From: a virus
Lineage: Duplodnaviria; Heunggongvirae; Uroviricota; Caudoviricetes
IMG/VR virus record: IMGVR_UViG_2718218128_000003
Location: 1 to 21,516 of that record
Direction: 5' to 3' (one strand)
Length of the DNA stretch: 21,516 nucleotides
In this document: piece after piece, positions 4,323 through 19,985 of the stretch
How the letters are laid out: each line of letters begins with the position of its first letter
Numbering within the stretch: the first letter of the stretch is position 1
Made by a program: the position numbers and the translations under genes
Notes under the pieces: generated by a model
Databases searched by the model: none
The model's input: only the letters and a program-made list of their open reading frames with translations
What the model was told of the DNA's origin: nothing

Positions 4323-4816
4323 TGCTGACCCCACAAACAGATTTCACGCTCAATCTCACGACGAGTCATGAGACCTTTCCATTGCTTACCGCCAGCATAT
4401 GTCCAGCGACGTAGCTGATCACATGCGCCTTTGATATCGCCCTGGTTTATTTTGCGAAGAAGCGTCGATGTTCTGAAATTGCCAGCACCCACGTTGTAAA
4501 CGAATGAGTAAAGAGCGCCGCGCGTTGTTTCCGGTATATCGACTTTGATGTACGGGTTAATTTGTCTGGCGACCGTGGCAAGGTCTTTATTCAAGAGTGT
4601 TTTGCATTCTGCTTTGGTATACGTTTTACCGAGCATGATGTCTTTTCCTGTATGCCCGTGACATACAGTCCATACACCAACAATATCTTTGTATGGTATG
4701 TAGCTGACACCTTCCAGACCATCGTTACCACTTGGGCCAGTGATTAACACTGATGCTATAGCAATTGCTCCGCCACCAATAGCAGCAGCAACGACTTTTC
4801 GTAATGATGGAGGCAT
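4319..4816 (-). CDS. SAR endolysin (lysozyme, phage 21 R-like)
   Basis: 165 aa with an N-terminal signal-anchor-release segment ([18 protein letters not shown]) and a lysozyme core; near-identical to the phage 21 / DLP12 RrrD-type endolysin as recalled. Confidence 0.9.
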
Positions 4817-5031
4817 TATTCACCTCTCGCAGCCTTGCGCTTATCTTCTTTAATCTTGAAATAAAGGTTTGTCAGGTACGTCAGCAGGCCAAATACCAGA
4901 CTACCCAGCACACCGATTGCAGCCCACTGTGACGGAGTTACTCTATCGAGCAACTGTAAAAACCAGTAGCCAGCACTGCCTGCGGAGGTGCCGTAGGCAA
5001 TGCCTGTTGAAATTTTGTCCATGGATTTCAT
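4816..5031 (-). CDS. Class II holin / pinholin with dual-start motif (phage 21 S-like)
   Basis: [29 protein letters not shown]... with starts at Met1 and Met4, preceded by GGAGGTGAGG. The track ORF carries a 19-codon upstream extension that I trimmed. Confidence 0.85.
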
Positions 5032-5130: not shown

Positions 5131-5157
5131 AATATAAAAAGCTCGCCGTAGCGAGCT
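5131..5157 (-). terminator. Intrinsic terminator between the lipoprotein cassette and the holin
   Basis: On the minus strand, stem AGCTCGC/GCGAGCT with a 4-nt loop, followed immediately by TTTTTATATT. Confidence 0.55.
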
Positions 5158-5282: not shown

Positions 5283-5678
5283 CTAACCTCGCATGTCAAA
5301 GCCAGATTTCTGAAAATCTCTGTAGACTTCCGGATTGTTGAAGGCCGGAAATTTGGCTTTATGAGCTGCGGACTTTATCGCTTCGCAATAGGCTTTATCA
5401 CCGTTACTGGTAGATATTTTTAACGCCGTGCCATCCTGAGAGAATTCCATATGCAACCTGCATTTTTTCCCTTTCCAGTTATGCGGCTCATCAAGTTTGG
5501 CATTAATTGCAGCTCTGATTCCCCGCGCTTGCGCCCCCCATTCATCCTGATCATCCCAGCGTCCTGAACTGCAACTACCTGTAGCAGTAGTTTTGTGGCA
5601 ATCTGAAGGGTGTAAAGGTGTGCATCCCGCAACAAAACCGACCCAAAAAGTCAACATAACGATTTTCTTTAATCCCAC
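5283..5678 (-). CDS. Lipoprotein with a diverged TolA C-terminal-domain-like region
   Basis: GTG start preceded by GAGGAG; signal peptide with lipobox (MGLKKIVMLTFWVGFVAGC). The C-terminus (GKKCRLHMEFSQDGTALKIS...CEAIKSAAHKAKFPAFNNPEVYRDF) keeps the Cys pair and spacing of TolA domain III. Confidence 0.6.
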   Translation of the reverse strand: MGLKKIVMLTFWVGFVAGCTPLHPSDCHKTTATGSCSSGRWDDQDEWGAQARGIRAAINAKLDEPHNWKGKKCRLHMEFSQDGTALKISTSNGDKAYCEAIKSAAHKAKFPAFNNPEVYRDFQKSGFDMRG

Positions 5679-5828
5679 TTCTTGCTCCTCAATCCATTAA
5701 AATCTCAGCAATAGTAGTTGTTACGTCCGCCACTGGCTCAGAGCTGACTATCCGCTAAATTTAGCTCAGTGCCGTAGCTGTGTCAGAACAAACCTAAGCC
5801 GAAACCGTTTATTACAAAACAATAAATA

Positions 5829-6257
5829 TCAGGGTTTAAAATCCAGCACCCCATTTTGAAATACTTTATATACTTCCGGCGAAGGGGGGGCAGGTATATC
5901 AGCATTCTTTATCGCATTCATCGCTTCACGACATAAATCGAGGTCTCCACTTTCTCTTTTAACCTCCAGTAGAAGGCCATTCGGGGCCATATGCATTCTC
6001 AGTGTACACTCTTTTCCTGAATACTTACTCGCATCCCCGAACTGTTTTTCGATGGCGCTCTTGATTTGATGGGCATACAGACGGATATCCTCACTAACAT
6101 CAGAAGTACGTTCAGATGAACTCACATACTGTGTCTCTATTGCTTTATCGGAGTAATATGATGTACGGTCATGATAATTTGTCGATACAGCATCAGTGCA
6201 CCCGATAATAATCCCACTAATAATCAACGTAAGAATTGATGCGCTACGAAAACCCAT
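5829..6257 (-). CDS. Lipoprotein with a TolA C-terminal-domain (domain III)-like region
   Basis: ATG preceded by GAGGA; lipobox (IISGIIIGC). The C-terminal ~85 aa (YAHQIKSAIEKQFGDASKYSGKECTLRMHMAPNGLLLEVK...PPSPEVYKVFQNGVLDFKP) aligns end to end with the E. coli TolA C-terminus as recalled. Confidence 0.7.
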   Translation of the reverse strand: MGFRSASILTLIISGIIIGCTDAVSTNYHDRTSYYSDKAIETQYVSSSERTSDVSEDIRLYAHQIKSAIEKQFGDASKYSGKECTLRMHMAPNGLLLEVKRESGDLDLCREAMNAIKNADIPAPPSPEVYKVFQNGVLDFKP

Positions 6258-7194
6258 TTTTCCTCACATATGTCATATAGTAAAGGATTATATATACCGT
6301 TGTTTTGGACGCTCAAACAGCGAATCAGATCAAATAAAACGCACATTTGTTAACATTTACACAAAGTCTGCGTGGGATATTCTGAAAGAATATCCATAAT
6401 GTGGAGAGAATCTATTGAAGTGCATGGTGCCGGGTGCCTCCCGGTGAACAAAATGTTCGTGATACCTGTCGGCGACAGAAAAGGTTAATGGTATCACCCC
6501 ACCGCACAGGGGGATTCACCATGCAGGAGTTTTCTTAGCAAACTCACTGCGCGCCCGGCAACTCCCAACCACATAAAATGCGGAGTTTGTGGTATTTATG
6601 CATATAACTCGCAGGAATTATCTTAAAAAACTGATGTCGATCCGGATTAAAAAGAAGCAGGTCATCATCAGATGACTGGAAAAAAGGAAAACAAAAAATA
6701 CTCATCATACAGTTTTGATTGCAGGGATGAGCCTGCTATGCACAATATGCAGAATATAAGCAAGATAAAAATATGCAGGCATATTATTTCGGATTTTGTT
6801 ATTAACACAACCTTTTTAATAATCATTTGGCATACAATAAACCAGCCCAAAAAGAACCGCCTAAACAGGCGGTTGGTCAATACAAAGGATGCTTCGTCTT
6901 TATTATAGTAATCTGAGGCGTCGGGTGTCTTGTATCAGACAACATATTGTCCCGCTAAACAGCGAATTACAAACCACCCTGCAATGATCTCTCATCTCAT
7001 TTTATATGAGTTGACGACATCAGGATAACGCATCATCAGCCCCTGCCAAGAAATATCAAAACTCCCGCCAGCAATGTGTTATCACAATATTGTAAAAAAA
7101 ACACAGCACCGAAACTATAACTGGTCTCTGTTATAATTTGGAGCAGAAAGACCAGTTGCCCAACTAGCAGCATTCTCCCCTGCTTTCCTGACGT

Positions 7195-7221
7195 AAAAAA
7201 ACCGCATTGAGCGGTTTTTTT
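7195..7221 (-). terminator. Bidirectional intrinsic terminator about 80 nt downstream of the Q-like gene (tR'-like)
   Basis: AAAAAA-ACCGC-ATTGA-GCGGT-TTTTTT hairpin with flanking A and T runs. Confidence 0.55.
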
Positions 7222-7301: not shown

Positions 7302-7844
7302 TCAAGCCATTTTCTCAGCAAATGATTCACGCATGGGAATATATAGGGCATACTCAGCAACAGCTAACCAATTAGCAATCCGTTTTTCGCATGTGCTAAA
7401 ACACCACTCTGGGTGTGCATCATTTAGCAATTCAGCCATTTTGCGCTTAGTCATCCCCCGCCCTTCATAGCGTTGCCGGAGAATGCAAATCAATCCTGGA
7501 TGCTCTGCCAGCACCTCACTTATGACTCGATCAATACATAACGCCTCTGCATCAGTACAATGCGCCAGCCAGCTCTTTTGCTTGCCGTTGATCATCTCTC
7601 GCAAAAACGCTTCCAGCTCAGCTTTCTCTATTCCCGCTTTTTTCATTCTGCGCAGGGCTTCATTAATGGCTGTTTTCGTCAGTTTTTTGGATGCCAACAA
7701 CTGATTGAACATATTCCCTGACCTGCCACCGCCAATATACGACCAGCGCCCCCACATACGTAGTTTTCCCTGAATCCAGACACTTTCCAGCGTGGTGAGG
7801 CGAAGGTGTTCTCCGCTTTTTCCTGTATTCGTTGGGTAAATCAT
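7302..7844 (-). CDS. Putative late-gene antiterminator Q-family protein
   Basis: 180-aa ORF immediately upstream of the terminator and lysis cassette, start overlapping the upstream gene (ATGA). Has an RWG-W-like N-terminal motif and C-terminal Cys pairs. Family assignment rests on position and motifs only. Confidence 0.55.
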   Translation of the reverse strand: MIYPTNTGKSGEHLRLTTLESVWIQGKLRMWGRWSYIGGGRSGNMFNQLLASKKLTKTAINEALRRMKKAGIEKAELEAFLREMINGKQKSWLAHCTDAEALCIDRVISEVLAEHPGLICILRQRYEGRGMTKRKMAELLNDAHPEWCFSTCEKRIANWLAVAEYALYIPMRESFAEKMA

Positions 7845-8131
7845 AAATGACCTTTCTTTCTCCAGATTTCTTGTGTGCGAAAAACCCCTTCAGCATGCAT
7901 CAGGCGCAATTCTTCTTTGGTGTAATCGCTGGTTTTTACCCGCCCGTCGATTAGATCGTGGCATTAGCTACAGGCTATCGCCGCCTGCATATCGTGTGGT
8001 TTTGTCGCTGTTCCGCACGTCCCCGCCAGCCTGTAATGCGCCAGCACAGAGGTTTCGGGATTGTGATTGCAGTAGCCAGGGATTCTGATCTGGCACATCT
8101 GGCCTTTAGCCGCTTTACGTAAATTCACCAT
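7841..8131 (-). pseudogene. ybcO-like (DUF1364, putative nuclease) gene interrupted by an in-frame TAA at about 7964-7966
   Basis: A single frame of 291 nt (the size of the 96-aa YbcO family) reads MVNLRKAAKGQMCQIRIPGYCNHNPETSVLAHYRLAGTCGTATKPHDMQAAIACS-stop-CHDLIDGRVKTSDYTKEELRLMHAEGVFRTQEIWRKKGHL. Both ends are translationally coupled to neighbours. The ORF track lists no ORF of 61 aa or more in this frame, consistent with the interruption. Confidence 0.55.
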
Positions 8132-9193: not shown

Positions 9194-9349
9194 TTACTCC
9201 CCAAGTTCGTAAGCTGTGAAGACAGCGACCTCCGTCTGGTCGGTTCGGATTCGTACCTCGCAGAGGTCTTTCCTCGTTACCAGTACCGTCACTATAACGG
9301 TTAAACAGATGACGATCAGGGTGATTAACATCGCCTTTTGCTGCTTCAT
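9194..9349 (-). CDS. hok: Hok/Gef-family type I toxin (HokD/RelF-like)
   Basis: MKQQKAMLITLIVICLTVIVTVLVTRKDLCEVRIRTDQTEVAVFTAYELGE, 51 aa, near-identical to HokD as recalled. An in-frame upstream ATG at 9406 gives the 70-aa track ORF. Confidence 0.8.
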   Translation of the reverse strand: MKQQKAMLITLIVICLTVIVTVLVTRKDLCEVRIRTDQTEVAVFTAYELGE

Positions 9350-9520
9350 AGCCCGCTTCTTCTTGCCTTTCAGCACGTAAGAGACTAACCTACGTTTGTA
9401 AGGCATAGATTGGGCCCCAGATTAATGTTAAGCCTCTTGCCGGATGCGTAATATCAACTGGGACTTTTTCTATCTGCCTTTGGTTTTCATGCCCAAGGCA
9501 GATAGCCTCAAGTCCCCGCA
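9350..9520 (-). promoter_or_regulatory. hok mRNA 5' leader with mok-like upstream start and expected Sok antisense target
   Basis: The leader contains CTTGAGGCTATCTGCC and GGCAAGAAGAAGCGGGCT-ATG, which resemble the R1 hok tac and translation-initiation regions as recalled. The Sok gene itself was not delimited. Confidence 0.4.
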
Positions 9521-9923: not shown

Positions 9924-10973
9924 TTATTTTAATCTCTGTAATTTTTTACGCAGAGCATTAACTCGTCTCTGAACCCCTATTTTTGGATTAAAGCTCAAAG
10001 CTTTTTCATAGGCATCAAGAGCATCACTAAAGTTACCAAGTAAATCATTTGCTTCACCTTTGATGCGAAATGCGGCTGCAGCCCAGTCAGTTCGGTCTTT
10101 CGCTCCTTCATTAAGAGCCATTTCAATTGCTTTCAATGCTTTTTGAGCATTCTTCTCACTGGGATGTTCTCTTAAAAGCGCTCTCGCGGCCTCTACTTTA
10201 AGGTTGAAATTTCCTTTATATAGACAAGCATCTTTATACGCTTCCACGTCAATGGGAATACCGATGGCAGTGTATCTGAAGTATCCAATATTTTTGCATT
10301 TCACTTTCAGCGATCTTAGCTCCCCATTTTCATCGAGATCGAAGAAATAACTATCAGCCCATCCATACTCAGGTTTAATGGAAAATATTGTTGTTTTTGA
10401 CCACAGATTTATTACCTCAAGGATATTTCCATCTTTACCGGGCGCTGCGGCTGTCTGAACCGATGCGTATTTACCACAATGAGAAATTCCGATATTATAG
10501 ATATTTGCTTCATAATGACGTCTAAACTTTTCATTTCCTTCAACATCAATAGCAATCAAATCAGCTTGCAGCGCAGAACCAAATCCAGCGTCATGAACAA
10601 TATAATCACCTGTGTCAGCGACAGCAGCATTAAATGGTCGGGCAATAGTTCTGAGCTTATGAAGGATACGAAAAGTTGGTTTATTAACTAAAACAACTGT
10701 TCCAAATCCACTTTCCCGGTGCCCTCCCCTTCCATTGCCATCAAAGTCACTACAGCCTACAACCCAATGTTTGTTTGCAGACAGATACGCCTGTCCAAAA
10801 AAATAAGGAGAATCAATAGTAAGCCAATCGTTTTCGATTGATATATTTCCGTTTTGTTTCTTGAGTTTAGGAGTTATGTTAGCTGTTAACTCATGCAAAC
10901 TTGAAGGCGTCATTGTTTTTGCAGAAGTTATCCTGGAGGTAAGCAAATTGAATAGTTGTGAAATAAATCCCAT
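9924..10973 (-). CDS. Uncharacterised 349-aa protein: unassigned N-terminal domain with a C-terminal TPR-like helical repeat
   Basis: Long ORF with AGGAG upstream and AT-rich codon usage. The C-terminus (AQKALKAIEMALNEGAKDRTDWAAAAFRIKGEANDLLGNFSDALDAYEKALSFNP) is TPR-like. The N-terminus contains GCSDFDGNGRGGH and HDAGFG motifs that I cannot place. Confidence 0.8.
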   Translation of the reverse strand: MGFISQLFNLLTSRITSAKTMTPSSLHELTANITPKLKKQNGNISIENDWLTIDSPYFFGQAYLSANKHWVVGCSDFDGNGRGGHRESGFGTVVLVNKPTFRILHKLRTIARPFNAAVADTGDYIVHDAGFGSALQADLIAIDVEGNEKFRRHYEANIYNIGISHCGKYASVQTAAAPGKDGNILEVINLWSKTTIFSIKPEYGWADSYFFDLDENGELRSLKVKCKNIGYFRYTAIGIPIDVEAYKDACLYKGNFNLKVEAARALLREHPSEKNAQKALKAIEMALNEGAKDRTDWAAAAFRIKGEANDLLGNFSDALDAYEKALSFNPKIGVQRRVNALRKKLQRLK

Positions 10974-11299
10974 TTATAAATACTCCTGAGTAGCTTTTTT
11001 AAAACGTTGGCACTTATATGGCCCTCCGTGGACAAAGTGGATCCAAAAATGTCCATTCTATCTAAGGCCAGACGAACGTTCTGGTTGAAAATCTGAGTAT
11101 CGCTTCGTCGCTAATTCGCCGTTAGACATATTTAACCACTTTTAGCAAAAATATGCACATTTTTCATCCAAGAAAACAAAAAATCGCCATCCGCAACAAT
11201 CTGCTTGTTTTCGTTAAATTTTGACAATCACGCCTTTTTCTTCTCGGCAGAGCTGAAAAATGCTAAAGTCGTATCTGGGTGGATTAATCGTATACATGG

Positions 11300-11376
11300 G
11301 AAAAGTAGATACGGAAGAAAGGGGAAAAGTAAAAGGTAGATGCAAAAGAAAGGTCCGCTTTGAGCGAGGAGCGGAC
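11300..11376 (-). terminator. Possible terminator after the GmrSD-like gene (GTCCGC...GCGGAC hairpin followed by a T-rich tract)
   Basis: Hairpin at 11353-11376 with a long loop, then CTTTCTTTTGCATCTACCTTTTACTTTTCC on the minus strand. Confidence 0.3.
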
Positions 11377-11500
11377 TTGTTAATATCGAGCCTATCTCGT
11401 AATGATATAATTGAAGACATGTTGTAGGCCTAGCAGGATATCCATGACTCATCAAACTGTCAGTAAAACATCCCACTTACGCCTATGTTTTATTGATAGA

Positions 11501-13183
11501 TTAACCAACTTTCCATACATTTACTGCTTGTTCCGACATCCATTTTTGAAAATCATTGACAGCCTCTAAATTCCATTCAGGATACTGTGTAATCTTAGCC
11601 GCTAATTTATACTTTGATTTTCCATATTCATTTTTCTTCACTTCAAATGAAGCTCTTTTTAGATTATCTTTATCCATCAAAACCATATTTCCTAACCTAT
11701 CCTTTACGTCATTAACCCCCTCCCCAAACGAATTGCACCACCCTTTCTCTGGGTTAAATGGACAAATATGTTCGAGTGTAACTTTTTCATGATCGCAATT
11801 ATTACCAAGATATTGTTCAATTTCAGCCAAGAGAAATCTAATTTTTTTGGCTGTTTGTCTACTTGGCATTCGATGAAATTCAAAAGCATTAAAGAACACG
11901 TTATCATCAGGATATAACCTCTTAAACTCCTCCCCATTTTTCACATTGCTAGCTCTCTTGTATTCCTTATTGGAGATCTTAATCGCAATTTGATTATACA
12001 TGCTTTCTTGTTCACTTGGTGATAAATGACAAATAACATTGTATCTAATTGATAAAATATATAAATAACGAGTCAGGCTGACGAACTCATCTGGATTGAA
12101 TTGATTAAAAGCTGATAGCAATACTGTTAATGGCTGTCTAATATTAAAGAGTCTAATGCCGTTCAGATAATGAATGGCCTTCTTGTATTTAGTATCTTGC
12201 TCTGCCCACCATGAATCATTCGGGTTAATCAATGATGCATAAATAGGTGCGGAATTTATCAGTGATCTTAAATAATCGTATGCTTCTTTAGGGGTTGTAA
12301 TTACTTTTCTCATTGAAGTGTATAAATTATTTTTTGTGACCATTTTTCTATGAGAATTATGATGATACCTAATGTAATCAGAAACATTGCTTTCTCCCAA
12401 CTGATCGATAATCTCCGACCATTGCTCATCTAACTCATCTAATTCCTCATCTCCGATTTTCTCATCCTTAGTTACTATCGAAAACAAATAGTTTTTTAAG
12501 AGATCTGGCGTGGATAACTGGACTCCTCTCGCATTTAAAGTTTCAAATACTTTGTATGCATTTAAATCATCTTGAACAACTATTTTTGTAAAAACCATAC
12601 TCGAAGAAAAATCGGCAATAAACTGTGCGATCTCAGCGCCGGTATTACCGAACTCCTTCTTTTGGAAAAAATCAAAGCATTTCTTGAGTAGCTTATTTGT
12701 AGATGTAGTTCCACGAGTATTAGGAGCTTCTAAGTTTGAACAGATGCTTTGAAAATATCTTTTATTATTTCTATTTAAATCTAGCTTGCTAACCACCTTT
12801 AATGAAACGAAGTTTTTGTTACCCACAAATGTCTTTGTTATTGCATCAAGTCGCTCTGTGTTTTGTTCAACCTCCTCTCCTTTATCTATCAAGTTTTTAA
12901 TGGCTTTCATGGCTGCTAGAACTATAATCGACAAGGTTACTAATCGTTGTTGACCATCAATGACCTCATGTTGATACTGTTCTTTTTGTTGAAGAACTAT
13001 ATATCCCATATAATGAAAACCTTCATCATCAAGTGCTGTAACATCACTCCAAAGGTCCTCCCATTGTTCTACATCCCAAGCATAGTCTCGCTGGAATCTA
13101 GGAACAATGTACTTATTTGACCCTCCAATTAATTCATTGAAGTTCTCATTTTTTGGTTCCATTAACATAAACTGTTTGGCCAT
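11501..13183 (-). CDS. GmrSD-family DUF262-DUF1524 fusion protein (candidate type IV modification-dependent restriction nuclease)
   Basis: 560 aa. N-terminal DUF262/ParB-like motifs (IVPRFQRDYAWD, IDGQQRLVTL) and a C-terminal His-Me-finger-like DUF1524 motif (TLEHICPFNPE...LGNMVLMDKDNL). AT-rich. Confidence 0.8.
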   Translation of the reverse strand: MAKQFMLMEPKNENFNELIGGSNKYIVPRFQRDYAWDVEQWEDLWSDVTALDDEGFHYMGYIVLQQKEQYQHEVIDGQQRLVTLSIIVLAAMKAIKNLIDKGEEVEQNTERLDAITKTFVGNKNFVSLKVVSKLDLNRNNKRYFQSICSNLEAPNTRGTTSTNKLLKKCFDFFQKKEFGNTGAEIAQFIADFSSSMVFTKIVVQDDLNAYKVFETLNARGVQLSTPDLLKNYLFSIVTKDEKIGDEELDELDEQWSEIIDQLGESNVSDYIRYHHNSHRKMVTKNNLYTSMRKVITTPKEAYDYLRSLINSAPIYASLINPNDSWWAEQDTKYKKAIHYLNGIRLFNIRQPLTVLLSAFNQFNPDEFVSLTRYLYILSIRYNVICHLSPSEQESMYNQIAIKISNKEYKRASNVKNGEEFKRLYPDDNVFFNAFEFHRMPSRQTAKKIRFLLAEIEQYLGNNCDHEKVTLEHICPFNPEKGWCNSFGEGVNDVKDRLGNMVLMDKDNLKRASFEVKKNEYGKSKYKLAAKITQYPEWNLEAVNDFQKWMSEQAVNVWKVG

Positions 13184-19588: not shown

Positions 19589-19783
19589 ATGAGATATGAC
19601 AATGTTAAACCATGTCCATTTTGTGGTTGTCCATCAGTAACGGTGAAAGCCATTTCAGGATATTACCGAGCGAAGTGTAACGGATGCGAATCCCGAACCG
19701 GTTATGGTGGAAGTGAAAAAGAAGCACTCGAAAGATGGAATAAACGAACCACTGGAAATAATAATGGAGGTATTCATGTATAA
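19589..19783 (+). CDS. ralR: Restriction alleviation protein Lar/RalR
   Basis: 64 aa, MRYDNVKPCPFCGCPSVTVKAISGYYRAKCNGCESRTGYGG... Confidence 0.85.
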   Translation: MRYDNVKPCPFCGCPSVTVKAISGYYRAKCNGCESRTGYGGSEKEALERWNKRTTGNNNGGIHV

Positions 19784-19985
19784 AATTACCGCCACTATTG
19801 AAAAGGAAGGTGGCACTCCTACTAACTGGACAAGATATTCAAAATCTAAACTAACGAAATCAGAATGCGAAAAAATGCTCTCAGGTAAAAAAGAAGCAGG
19901 CGTTTCCAGAGAGCAGAAAGTAAAACTGATAAATTTTAATTGCGAGAAACTTCAGTCCTCGAGAATTGCATTGTATTCAAATTAA
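19776..19985 (+). CDS. ydaC: YdaC (DUF1187) small protein
   Basis: 69 aa, MYKITATIEKEGGTPTNWTRYSK..., with GGAGG upstream; overlaps the ralR end by 8 nt. Confidence 0.8.
   Translation: MYKITATIEKEGGTPTNWTRYSKSKLTKSECEKMLSGKKEAGVSREQKVKLINFNCEKLQSSRIALYSN

Follow-up and report, generated by a model that had tools for sequence, protein, structure and literature searches.

Two Small Lipoproteins with a Stand-Alone TolA Domain III Fold in the Late Region of a Defective Rac-Type Prophage: Possible Coreceptor Decoys

Introduction

Why would a lambdoid prophage carry copies of a bacterial envelope domain right beside its lysis genes? The question is raised by a 21,516-nt stretch of DNA, hereafter the window, which corresponds to positions 1 to 21,516 of the IMG/VR virus record IMGVR_UViG_2718218128_000003 (Caudoviricetes). 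Two adjacent minus-strand genes of this window, here named L1 and L2, encode small lipoproteins of 142 and 131 residues, respectively, that resemble TolA's C-terminal domain. This domain (domain III, or TolAIII) is the periplasmic hub on whose capture group A colicins depend, as do filamentous phages (Ff, IF1, CTXphi). The window is 100% identical to a Rac-type defective prophage of Escherichia coli strain S3, which lies between ompN/sit and recET/ralR and carries trkG as well as tail-fibre remnants. Here we show that L1 and L2 are accessory genes that together make up a cassette in this prophage's late operon, and that each protein joins a predicted lipid-anchor cysteine and a flexible linker to a stand-alone TolA domain III fold. 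We further ask what such proteins might do, and tentatively favour a role as decoys for invaders that bind TolA.

Results

Fold and Relationship to TolA

Against the Pfam model of the TolA C-terminal domain (PF06519; curated gathering score, 25 bits), L1 scores 82.6 bits (E = 2.4e-23) and L2 54.6 bits (E = 1.3e-14). In phmmer searches of the Protein Data Bank (PDB), the E. coli TolAIII chains 1S62, 3QDP, 2X9A and 1TOL are retrieved with E ~5e-28 by L1 and ~5e-9 by L2. The alignment of L1 with residues 334-421 of E. coli TolA contains 52 identities in 88 positions (59%) and runs ungapped through the last residue, while L2 shares 33% identity with TolAIII over 81 positions. The disulfide pair of TolA, C363/C388, corresponds to C84/C109 in L1 and C73/C98 in L2, in each case 25 residues apart, and this pair is invariant in 16-24 homologs. 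A first-pass annotation of the window, made from the DNA letters, had matched about 85 C-terminal residues of the 142-residue protein to TolA and had described the 131-residue protein as more diverged with the same cysteine spacing. Both descriptions are correct, and two of the checks it proposed, a profile hidden Markov model search and a structure prediction superposed on TolA domain III, agree with them.

The AlphaFold model of L1 has predicted local distance difference test (pLDDT) values above 90 over the domain and below 50 for residues 1-49, and that of L2 has values of 88-97 for residues 41-131; signal peptide and linker are disordered in both. Solved E. coli TolAIII structures occupy the top Foldseek ranks for the two models. 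L1 superposes on 2x9a_B with a root-mean-square deviation of 0.7 Å over 88 columns (template modelling score, TM, 0.96) and L2 on 3qdp with 1.0 Å over 86 columns (TM 0.92), and the two proteins have the same three-helix, three-strand fold and disulfide pair as the E. coli domain (1TOL, 2X9A, 3QDP/3QDR, 1S62). C-terminal domains of TonB match both models at lower Foldseek rank. L1 also exceeds the cutoff of the Pfam TonB_2 model (23.6 vs. 22 bits), its identity to TonB domains being only 17-20%.

Lipoprotein Signals and Gene Starts

In both N-termini a basic n-region and a hydrophobic core lead up to a lipobox (R4...IIGC20 in L1, K4K5...VAGC19 in L2), and both meet the lipobox pattern [LVI][ASTVI][GAS]C at the end of the signal peptide. 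Among 16 aligned homologs the lipobox cysteine is invariant and the glycine before it nearly so. A Shine-Dalgarno (SD) sequence precedes each gene, GAGGA at 6265-6261 for L1 and GAGGAG at 5690-5685 for L2, the latter followed 6 nt further on by a GTG start codon. Thus two minus-strand genes, each with its own SD and lipobox cysteine, are present as first described. RefSeq places the start of L2 at an internal ATG (5657), so that the signal peptide loses its basic n-region. The longer open reading frame (ORF), which begins at 5678 as in the first-pass annotation, is the better call because GAGGAG and a start codon at this position are common to the prophage, IncK plasmid, pO157, Serratia and Enterobacter copies of L2 (in the plasmid copies the codon is ATG). 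The 5' leader and SD of L2 are kept across these genomic contexts, and the 5678 start supplies the Lys-Lys n-region of the signal peptide.

In E. coli, the residue at position +2 after the lipobox cysteine serves to predict lipoprotein sorting by the Lol-avoidance rule, a residue other than Asp pointing to the outer membrane. This residue is Thr in L1 and L2 and Ala, Ser or Gly in homologs of L2, but never Asp. Under the rule both proteins are predicted to be Lol-dependent outer-membrane lipoproteins, anchored in the periplasmic leaflet of that membrane.

Differences from TolA Proper

Neither protein reaches the cutoff of the NCBIfam TolA equivalog model NF007065 (213; L1, 107.8; L2, 53.7). 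With TIGR02794 (cutoff 59.45), L2 again falls below (47.2), whereas L1 scores 75.6 but covers only model positions 265-362 of 362. The RefSeq name of L1, "tolA / cell envelope integrity protein TolA", follows from this partial match exceeding the cutoff and, judged by domain content, is an over-annotation. In effect, TolA has a TolQR-coupled inner-membrane anchor (domain I) and a long helical domain II, whereas L1 and L2 have a lipobox and a disordered linker of at most 34 residues before the domain, and would hang from the outer membrane instead. The tolA gene resides in the tolQRA-tolB-pal operon; L1 and L2 are encoded outside it, on mobile elements, here between a Q-like gene and the prophage holin gene. 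Pfam and PHROG scans of the two proteins returned TolA_C, TonB_2 and phrog_5772 ("unknown function") and no homology to Cor or Llp. The genes and the domain label are thus already in databases; what is new is the architecture on mobile elements.

A Family of Short TolAIII Lipoproteins

We built a profile from L1, L2 and relatives; among 1.84 billion cluster representatives it matched 588 at E <= 1e-3. Among the best 150 of these 588, 95 are at most 170 residues long, and 64 of the 95 combine a lipoprotein signal with a lipobox, as against 3 of 54 longer TolA-like proteins. The domain of L1 is nearest to enterobacterial TolAIII, L2 forms its own clade, and identity to E. coli TolAIII reaches 68% in other lineages of short lipoproteins. 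By this sequence comparison, small TolAIII-only lipoproteins are a recurrent, diverse and broad family that includes both L1 and L2. For P0187, a member of a third lineage on a 2.8-kb contig, the homolog search returned the query alone.

The two genes of the cassette belong to two lineages. L1 and L2 are 29% identical and differ in phyletic pattern, and we rejected a recent tandem duplication on these grounds. The tandem TolA-like pair of the first-pass annotation is therefore a pair in the sense of two adjacent genes, not of two copies of one thing. Nearly all homologs of L1 come from E. coli or Shigella; the variants range down to 65% identity, and every one of them has the lipobox. A variant with 66% identity stands alone in the same slot of prophages like those of enterohaemorrhagic E. 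coli (EHEC), downstream of a different Q (PF03589) and with TfpB, AraC-type and nanS-p cargo as slot neighbours; it is followed by its own terminator (-17.3 kcal/mol at locus L010). Frameshifted variants of L1 also exist in databases (e.g., P0010, P0036).

At roughly >=70% identity, homologs of L2 fall into 368 clusters, from Citrobacter, Enterobacter, Serratia, Raoultella and Klebsiella. The L2-type gene is single and chromosomal in Serratia, Enterobacter, Citrobacter and Klebsiella oxytoca, with unrelated neighbourhoods and no prophage context. Across these four genera and two plasmid types it is always single and has no conserved neighbour; such a gene without a partner would suit a protein whose target in the envelope is universally conserved. 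The homolog of Serratia marcescens (loci L003 and L004, 6001-8736) adjoins genes with GmrSD_N (DUF262-type) and HEPN domains, a neighbourhood that looks like a defence island.

Of 5426 complete E. coli genomes, 898 carry L1 (blastn, E <= 1e-5), 782 of them at >=99% identity, and 1269 carry L2, for which 784 records reach >=99%. The close agreement between 782 and 784 suggests that the L1-L2 cassette moves as one unit. Among sequenced phages the cassette occurs only in mEp460_ev081, >99% identical and behind a different Q type. A recent capture of L1 from a resident tolA was rejected, given that L1 DNA has no match to native tolA in the 4528 genomes lacking the cassette.

Plasmids of the complete E. 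coli genomes contributed 536 further L2 matches at ~88% protein identity, and L2-type genes occur on ~600 plasmids in all, including pO157 of O157:H7. On I-complex (IncK2/Z) plasmids the L2-type gene lies directly downstream of the nikA/nikB relaxase genes in the same orientation, and on pO157 it lies beside a nikB remnant. In PLSDB, 917 plasmids have a match, 488 of them predicted conjugative, a count that includes a second, distant TolA_C family. The latter, ~35% identical to L2 and annotated "tolA", is found on ~300 Klebsiella and Enterobacter plasmids; on the Klebsiella pneumoniae IncFIB/FII plasmid pMR0617ctx (locus L014, 5812-6246) the gene is immediately downstream of a thioredoxin-fold gene.

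Pairwise ratios of nonsynonymous to synonymous substitution rates (dN/dS) are 0.08-0.15 among prophage, plasmid and chromosomal copies of L2. For L1 paired with its variant the ratio is 0.36 overall, lower in the domain (0.24) and higher in the linker (0.59). Purifying selection thus acts on both genes, very strongly on L2.

Ligand Surfaces

The TolA ligands use two edges of the domain III sheet. The g3p-N1 domain and the N-terminus of TolB add a strand to β3, while colicin A adds one to β2, at the opposite sheet edge (PMC7391070). The colicin A site comprises residues 375-380 together with the cation-π lysines K368, K379 and K396 (PMC3365938). Colicin N occupies the β3 site with a dissociation constant (KD) of 1 µM, against 40 µM for TolB, and binding of colicin N, g3p and TolB is lost altogether in TolA D418P or K420P (PMC4339652). 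Additionally, the I-pilus phage IF1 uses TolAIII as coreceptor (PDB 2x9a).

The C-terminus of L1 is the LDFKP β3 strand to which g3p-N1, colicin N and TolB bind in TolA: residues 415-421, APLDFKP in TolA, read GVLDFKP in L1, and D418 and K420 are kept. Most of the colicin A site is retained too, with LLEVKR in place of LLDIKP at the β2 strand (375-380) and H/K/K at the positions of K368/K379/K396. L1 looks competent for the known TolAIII ligands, perhaps more weakly at the K368 contact. L2, in contrast, has SGFDMRG at β3, ALKIST at β2 and E/S/H at the three lysines; it retains the edge strand with different side chains and adds a strongly conserved Cys-rich segment, CHKTTATGSCSSGRWDDQDEW, that is absent from TolA. 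With ligand surfaces so altered, L2 probably recognises a different ligand set.

Genomic Setting

The cassette lies in the interval between the Q-like late antiterminator gene and the P21-type holin gene (table 1), where the first-pass annotation had put it, and the intrinsic terminator it reported before the holin is likewise found by scan and folding. The Q-like product scores 356 bits against Pfam DUF1133 and 26.1 bits against Phage_antitermQ (cutoff 26), and matches PHROG 753, "anti-termination protein Q-like", at E = 2e-79. The holin gene is named essD in RefSeq, and a phage lysozyme gene is also located downstream. The terminator has a stem at 5157-5140 of 7 pairs (5 GC) followed by TTTTTAT, and folds at -13 kcal/mol (z = -3.84), as well as which none of 200 shuffles folds.

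Table 1. Coordinates of L1, L2 and associated features. Positions refer to the window, except for the plasmid copies, which are numbered within their loci.
Feature	Location	Strand	Evidence or details
L1 (142-aa TolAIII-like lipoprotein)	5829..6257	minus	ORF and PF06519 match
L1, parts	residues 1-142		signal peptide and lipobox IIGC 1-20; disordered linker 21-54; TolA_C domain 55-142 (nt 6095-5832)
L2 (131-aa TolA_C lipoprotein, GTG start)	5283..5678	minus	ORF and PF06519 match
L2, parts	residues 1-131		signal peptide and lipobox VAGC 1-19; Cys-rich CHKTTATGSCSSGRWDDQDEW 27-47; TolA_C domain ~44-131
Q-like late antiterminator, upstream boundary of slot	7302..7844	minus	DUF1133, PHROG 753
STnc100-like RNA element between Q and L1	6368..6554	minus	Rfam RF02076, 86.6 bits (gathering score 47)
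Candidate sigma-70 promoter for L1, TTGAGC-18-TATAAT	6287..6316	minus	consensus scan, 10/12
Weak promoter-like site, L1-L2 intergenic, CTGACA-17-TAAATT	5758..5786	minus	consensus scan, 9/12
Intrinsic terminator after L2, upstream of holin	5132..5157	minus	terminator scan and folding
P21-type holin, downstream boundary of slot	4816..5031	minus	Phage_holin_2_1, 120.9 bits; PHROG holin families
L2-type copy, pO157	L012 7001-7432		
L2-type copy, IncK2/Z pMbl536	L013, L015 5965-6396		

Upstream of L1, the STnc100-like element departs from its consensus at the 3' end: where the consensus has a GC-rich terminator with a U-tract, the window has an AU-rich hairpin, GGAUAUUCU-UUC-AGAAUAUCC (6366-6400; -9.5 kcal/mol), with no U-tract and no T-run after it. 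A similar element is found at locus L002 (5700-5890). At locus L010 the L1 variant is instead followed by a fragment like the STnc100 3' half, its terminator intact. The STnc100-like element may represent a late-promoter leader RNA of these phages. The consensus scan of the region returned 11 promoter-like sites, compared with 7.2 ± 2.4 in shuffles. Comparison of the L1 promoter region gives no phylogenetic footprint either way, with the mEp460 copy >99% identical and the region upstream of the L1 variant unrelated. A search for the empty site, with the STnc100 flank joined to the holin flank, found none: 0 of 5167 matching genomes reached 80% coverage.

Other elements were observed in and around this interval. 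A hairpin with an A-run on one side and a T-run on the other, AAAAAACCGC-TCAAT-GCGGTTTTTTT, at 7195-7220 on the minus strand, ~85 nt past the stop codon of the Q-like gene, was seen by eye and is absent from the terminator scan; a further terminator-like site occupies 6874-6855. In mEp460_ev081 (locus L002, 4751-5000) and in the L1-variant prophages (loci L009-L011, 5566-5721) the interval from Q to the TolA-like gene contains two tRNA genes, and the window has none there. Beyond the slot, the DUF1364 gene (7841-8131) is a RefSeq pseudogene with an internal stop, and a sok antitoxin RNA occurs with a hok gene at 9344-9517. RefSeq further lists a tetratricopeptide-repeat protein and a 560-residue DUF262 (GmrSD-like) protein at ~9924-13183 on the minus strand (locus L001, 17125-20384), between hok/sok and a DUF977 gene, and these could be anti-phage defence cargo. 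A RalA antitoxin small RNA adjoins ralR (19782-19960), and an IS009 RNA-family match falls inside tfaR (256-454).

Discussion

A Possible Decoy of the TolA Tip

The best-supported explanation, which we put forward with rather less than even confidence, is that L1 and L2 are outer-membrane-tethered, force-uncoupled decoys of the TolA tip directed against TolA-binding invaders. Group A colicins and g3p have to dock on TolAIII by β-strand addition before being pulled into the cell; a TolAIII look-alike tethered immediately below the outer membrane would be the first to encounter these ligands and would transmit no force. TolA numbers 500-2000 copies per cell, and its Kd for TolB is 40-250 µM (PMC7066135). 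The decoy could outnumber these TolA molecules, and a modest level of it might titrate the invaders (~1 µM) with mild disturbance of Tol-Pal (TolB, ~40 µM or weaker): because the invaders bind TolAIII ~40-fold tighter than TolB does, they would be soaked up while Tol-Pal is mostly spared. The cassette might be transcribed from its own candidate promoter or via read-through of the degenerate STnc100 hairpin. In a lysogen without Q, transcription would end at the terminator before the holin gene, and late transcription under Q antitermination would include the cassette as well.

Titration of the TolA hub in the laboratory is known to block group A colicins and filamentous phages. Soluble periplasmic TolAIII reportedly gives colicin tolerance and makes wild-type cells leaky (Levengood-Freyermuth et al., 1993). 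The reciprocal precedent is periplasmic g3p-N1, which sequesters TolA and confers resistance to colicin A and phage (PMC10424213). The position of plasmid copies behind nikAB on I-pilus plasmids can be linked with the use of TolAIII as coreceptor by IF1, a connection that is suggestive only. On the evidence of the ligand surfaces a decoy role seems plausible for L1, whose β3 ligand strand is kept, and weaker for L2, since the known ligand surfaces of the latter have diverged.

Several points weigh against a decoy function. Lipidation and outer-membrane sorting are predictions from sequence rules. K368, judged the most important colicin A contact, is His, Tyr or Asn across the L1 family, and in L2 none of the known ligand surfaces is conserved. 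The host could pay a price for a decoy to which TolB also binds. The candidate L1 promoter is a consensus match only, and a site immediately upstream of lysis genes suits a lytic-cycle role equally well. Furthermore, no defence model in PADLOC-DB 2.0 matches either protein at E <= 1, and full-text literature searches yielded no functional study or characterised protein of this type. The first-pass annotation had stated that it knew of no characterised phage protein of the kind; this stands for the literature searched, but the type is not phage-specific, given its chromosomal and plasmid copies. Apparent literature matches were rejected as referring to the host tolA gene or to author names. Overall, what that annotation observed is confirmed. 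Its interpretation is partly supported, in the likeness to TolA domain III and in the placement between Q and the holin; the proteins may, as it proposed, exclude colicins or Ff phage or perturb Tol-Pal.

Alternative Explanations

The main competing scenario, which we consider unlikely yet worth serious attention, is a modulation of Tol-Pal. The lipoproteins would bind, at the outer membrane, either the N-terminus of host TolB or some other partner in the Tol-Pal system, with less mobilisation of Pal and a looser membrane as the outcome. This would give more vesicles or, with the cassette co-transcribed with the holin, endolysin and spanin genes late in infection, easier and better-timed disruption of the envelope. 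The location of the cassette inside a Q-dependent late operon, directly upstream of the holin gene, is consistent with this, as is the retention in L1 of the β3 strand used by TolB, D418 and K420 included. TolAIII point mutants without TolB binding show the full tol phenotype (PMC4339652), and the tuning of TolB interactions has been suggested in a review as a means of regulating vesicle production (PMC7391070). The leakiness reported for wild-type cells with periplasmic TolAIII would fit as well. However, the strong terminator between cassette and holin gene is the architecture of a lysogen-expressed moron rather than that of a lysis gene, solitary L2-type genes on chromosomes and plasmids have no lysis genes nearby, and the cassette is nearly unchanged in a defective prophage that no longer makes virions. 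The weak affinity between TolA and TolB (40-250 µM) would also require high levels of the lipoproteins. Far less tenable still is the notion that L1 and L2 are non-functional debris, fragments of tolA arising by illegitimate recombination and passively carried, which we regard as effectively refuted. The prophage is admittedly defective, with pseudogenes nearby such as the DUF1364 gene, and frameshifted L1 variants do exist, but purifying selection acts on both genes, which are present in 16-23% of complete E. coli genomes. Each has its own SD and a full signal peptide with lipobox, a feature absent from real TolA and invariant in the homologs. Nor does L1 DNA resemble resident tolA, as the blastn search (E <= 1e-5) matched 898 genomes and not all 5426.

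Inactivation of receptors from the periplasm is the work of an established class of phage lipoproteins in the outer membrane, such as Llp of T5 and Cor of phi80 and N15, and L1 and L2 might act in a comparable way. By β-strand addition to a segment like a TonB box or Tol box on the periplasmic face of an outer-membrane transporter or porin, they would immobilise the receptor and close it to the superinfecting tailed phages or bacteriocins that rely on it. We hold this to be improbable, though it would fit L2 better than L1: the surfaces of L2 are unlike those of TolAIII and yet L2 is under very strong purifying selection, which implies a conserved and different ligand. The TonB_2 score of L1 and the lower-ranking TonB matches of both models point in the same direction, and β-augmentation is common to the TolA-TolB and TonB-TonB-box complexes (PMC7066135). 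On the other side, the Pfam and PHROG scans gave no sequence relationship to Cor or Llp, no candidate receptor emerged, and L1 is 59% identical to TolAIII compared with 17-20% to TonB domains.

Comparison with Known Systems

Returning to the decoy explanation, its principle would be that of periplasmic g3p-N1/pIII expression, in which an uncoupled partner titrates the contact between TolA and its ligand and so produces tolerance to colicin A and Ff (PMC10424213). The difference is that such sequestration, like soluble periplasmic TolAIII, is a laboratory construct or a case of inovirus exclusion, while L1 and L2 are natural lipid-anchored copies of TolAIII for which the effect is proposed. With Cor (phi80, N15, HK022) and Llp (T5) they share small size, phage origin and a predicted position facing the periplasm from the outer membrane, and all are candidates for closing a route of import through the envelope that phages and colicins exploit. 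Cor and Llp, however, inactivate the receptor FhuA, whereas L1 and L2 would imitate a periplasmic coreceptor, and no fold relationship was detected between them either. In gene organization the closest parallels are the lambdoid morons, namely bor and lom of lambda and stx and nanS-p in the Q-to-holin slot. The terminators after L2 and after the L1 variant, the varied Q types and the lone occurrence of the L1 variant indicate a moron-like architecture and mobility, and the cassette further shares with morons its insertion in the late region and its variable presence. Elsewhere moron cargo is a toxin, a serum-resistance factor or an esterase; here it is a mimic of a host envelope domain, with a promoter that is only a candidate.

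Significance

A wider proposition, possible but rather doubtful at present, is that mobile elements of Enterobacteriaceae spread TolA-tip coreceptor decoys as a new form of envelope immunity by hub mimicry instead of receptor modification or masking, with lineages (L1, L2, the Klebsiella-plasmid type and others) tuned to different invaders. The carriers of such a class would be lambdoid prophages, I-complex and pO157-type plasmids and single-gene chromosomal islands, and its targets group A colicins and pilus-specific filamentous phages. Coreceptor mimicry, as a plausible working principle, differs from that of the known exclusion lipoproteins. L1 is found in roughly one in six and L2 in one in four complete E. 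coli genomes, and L2-type genes reside on pO157 and on I-complex resistance plasmids as well. If the decoy function is true, these genes would be a widespread and simple determinant of colicin and inovirus sensitivity that current catalogues of resistance and defence miss, and they would affect the use of colicin- or phage-based antimicrobials against natural isolates. They would also offer Tol-Pal research natural variants in which ligand binding is separated from force transduction. If instead the proteins tune Tol-Pal, the cassette would represent a mobile regulator of outer-membrane stability and vesiculation.

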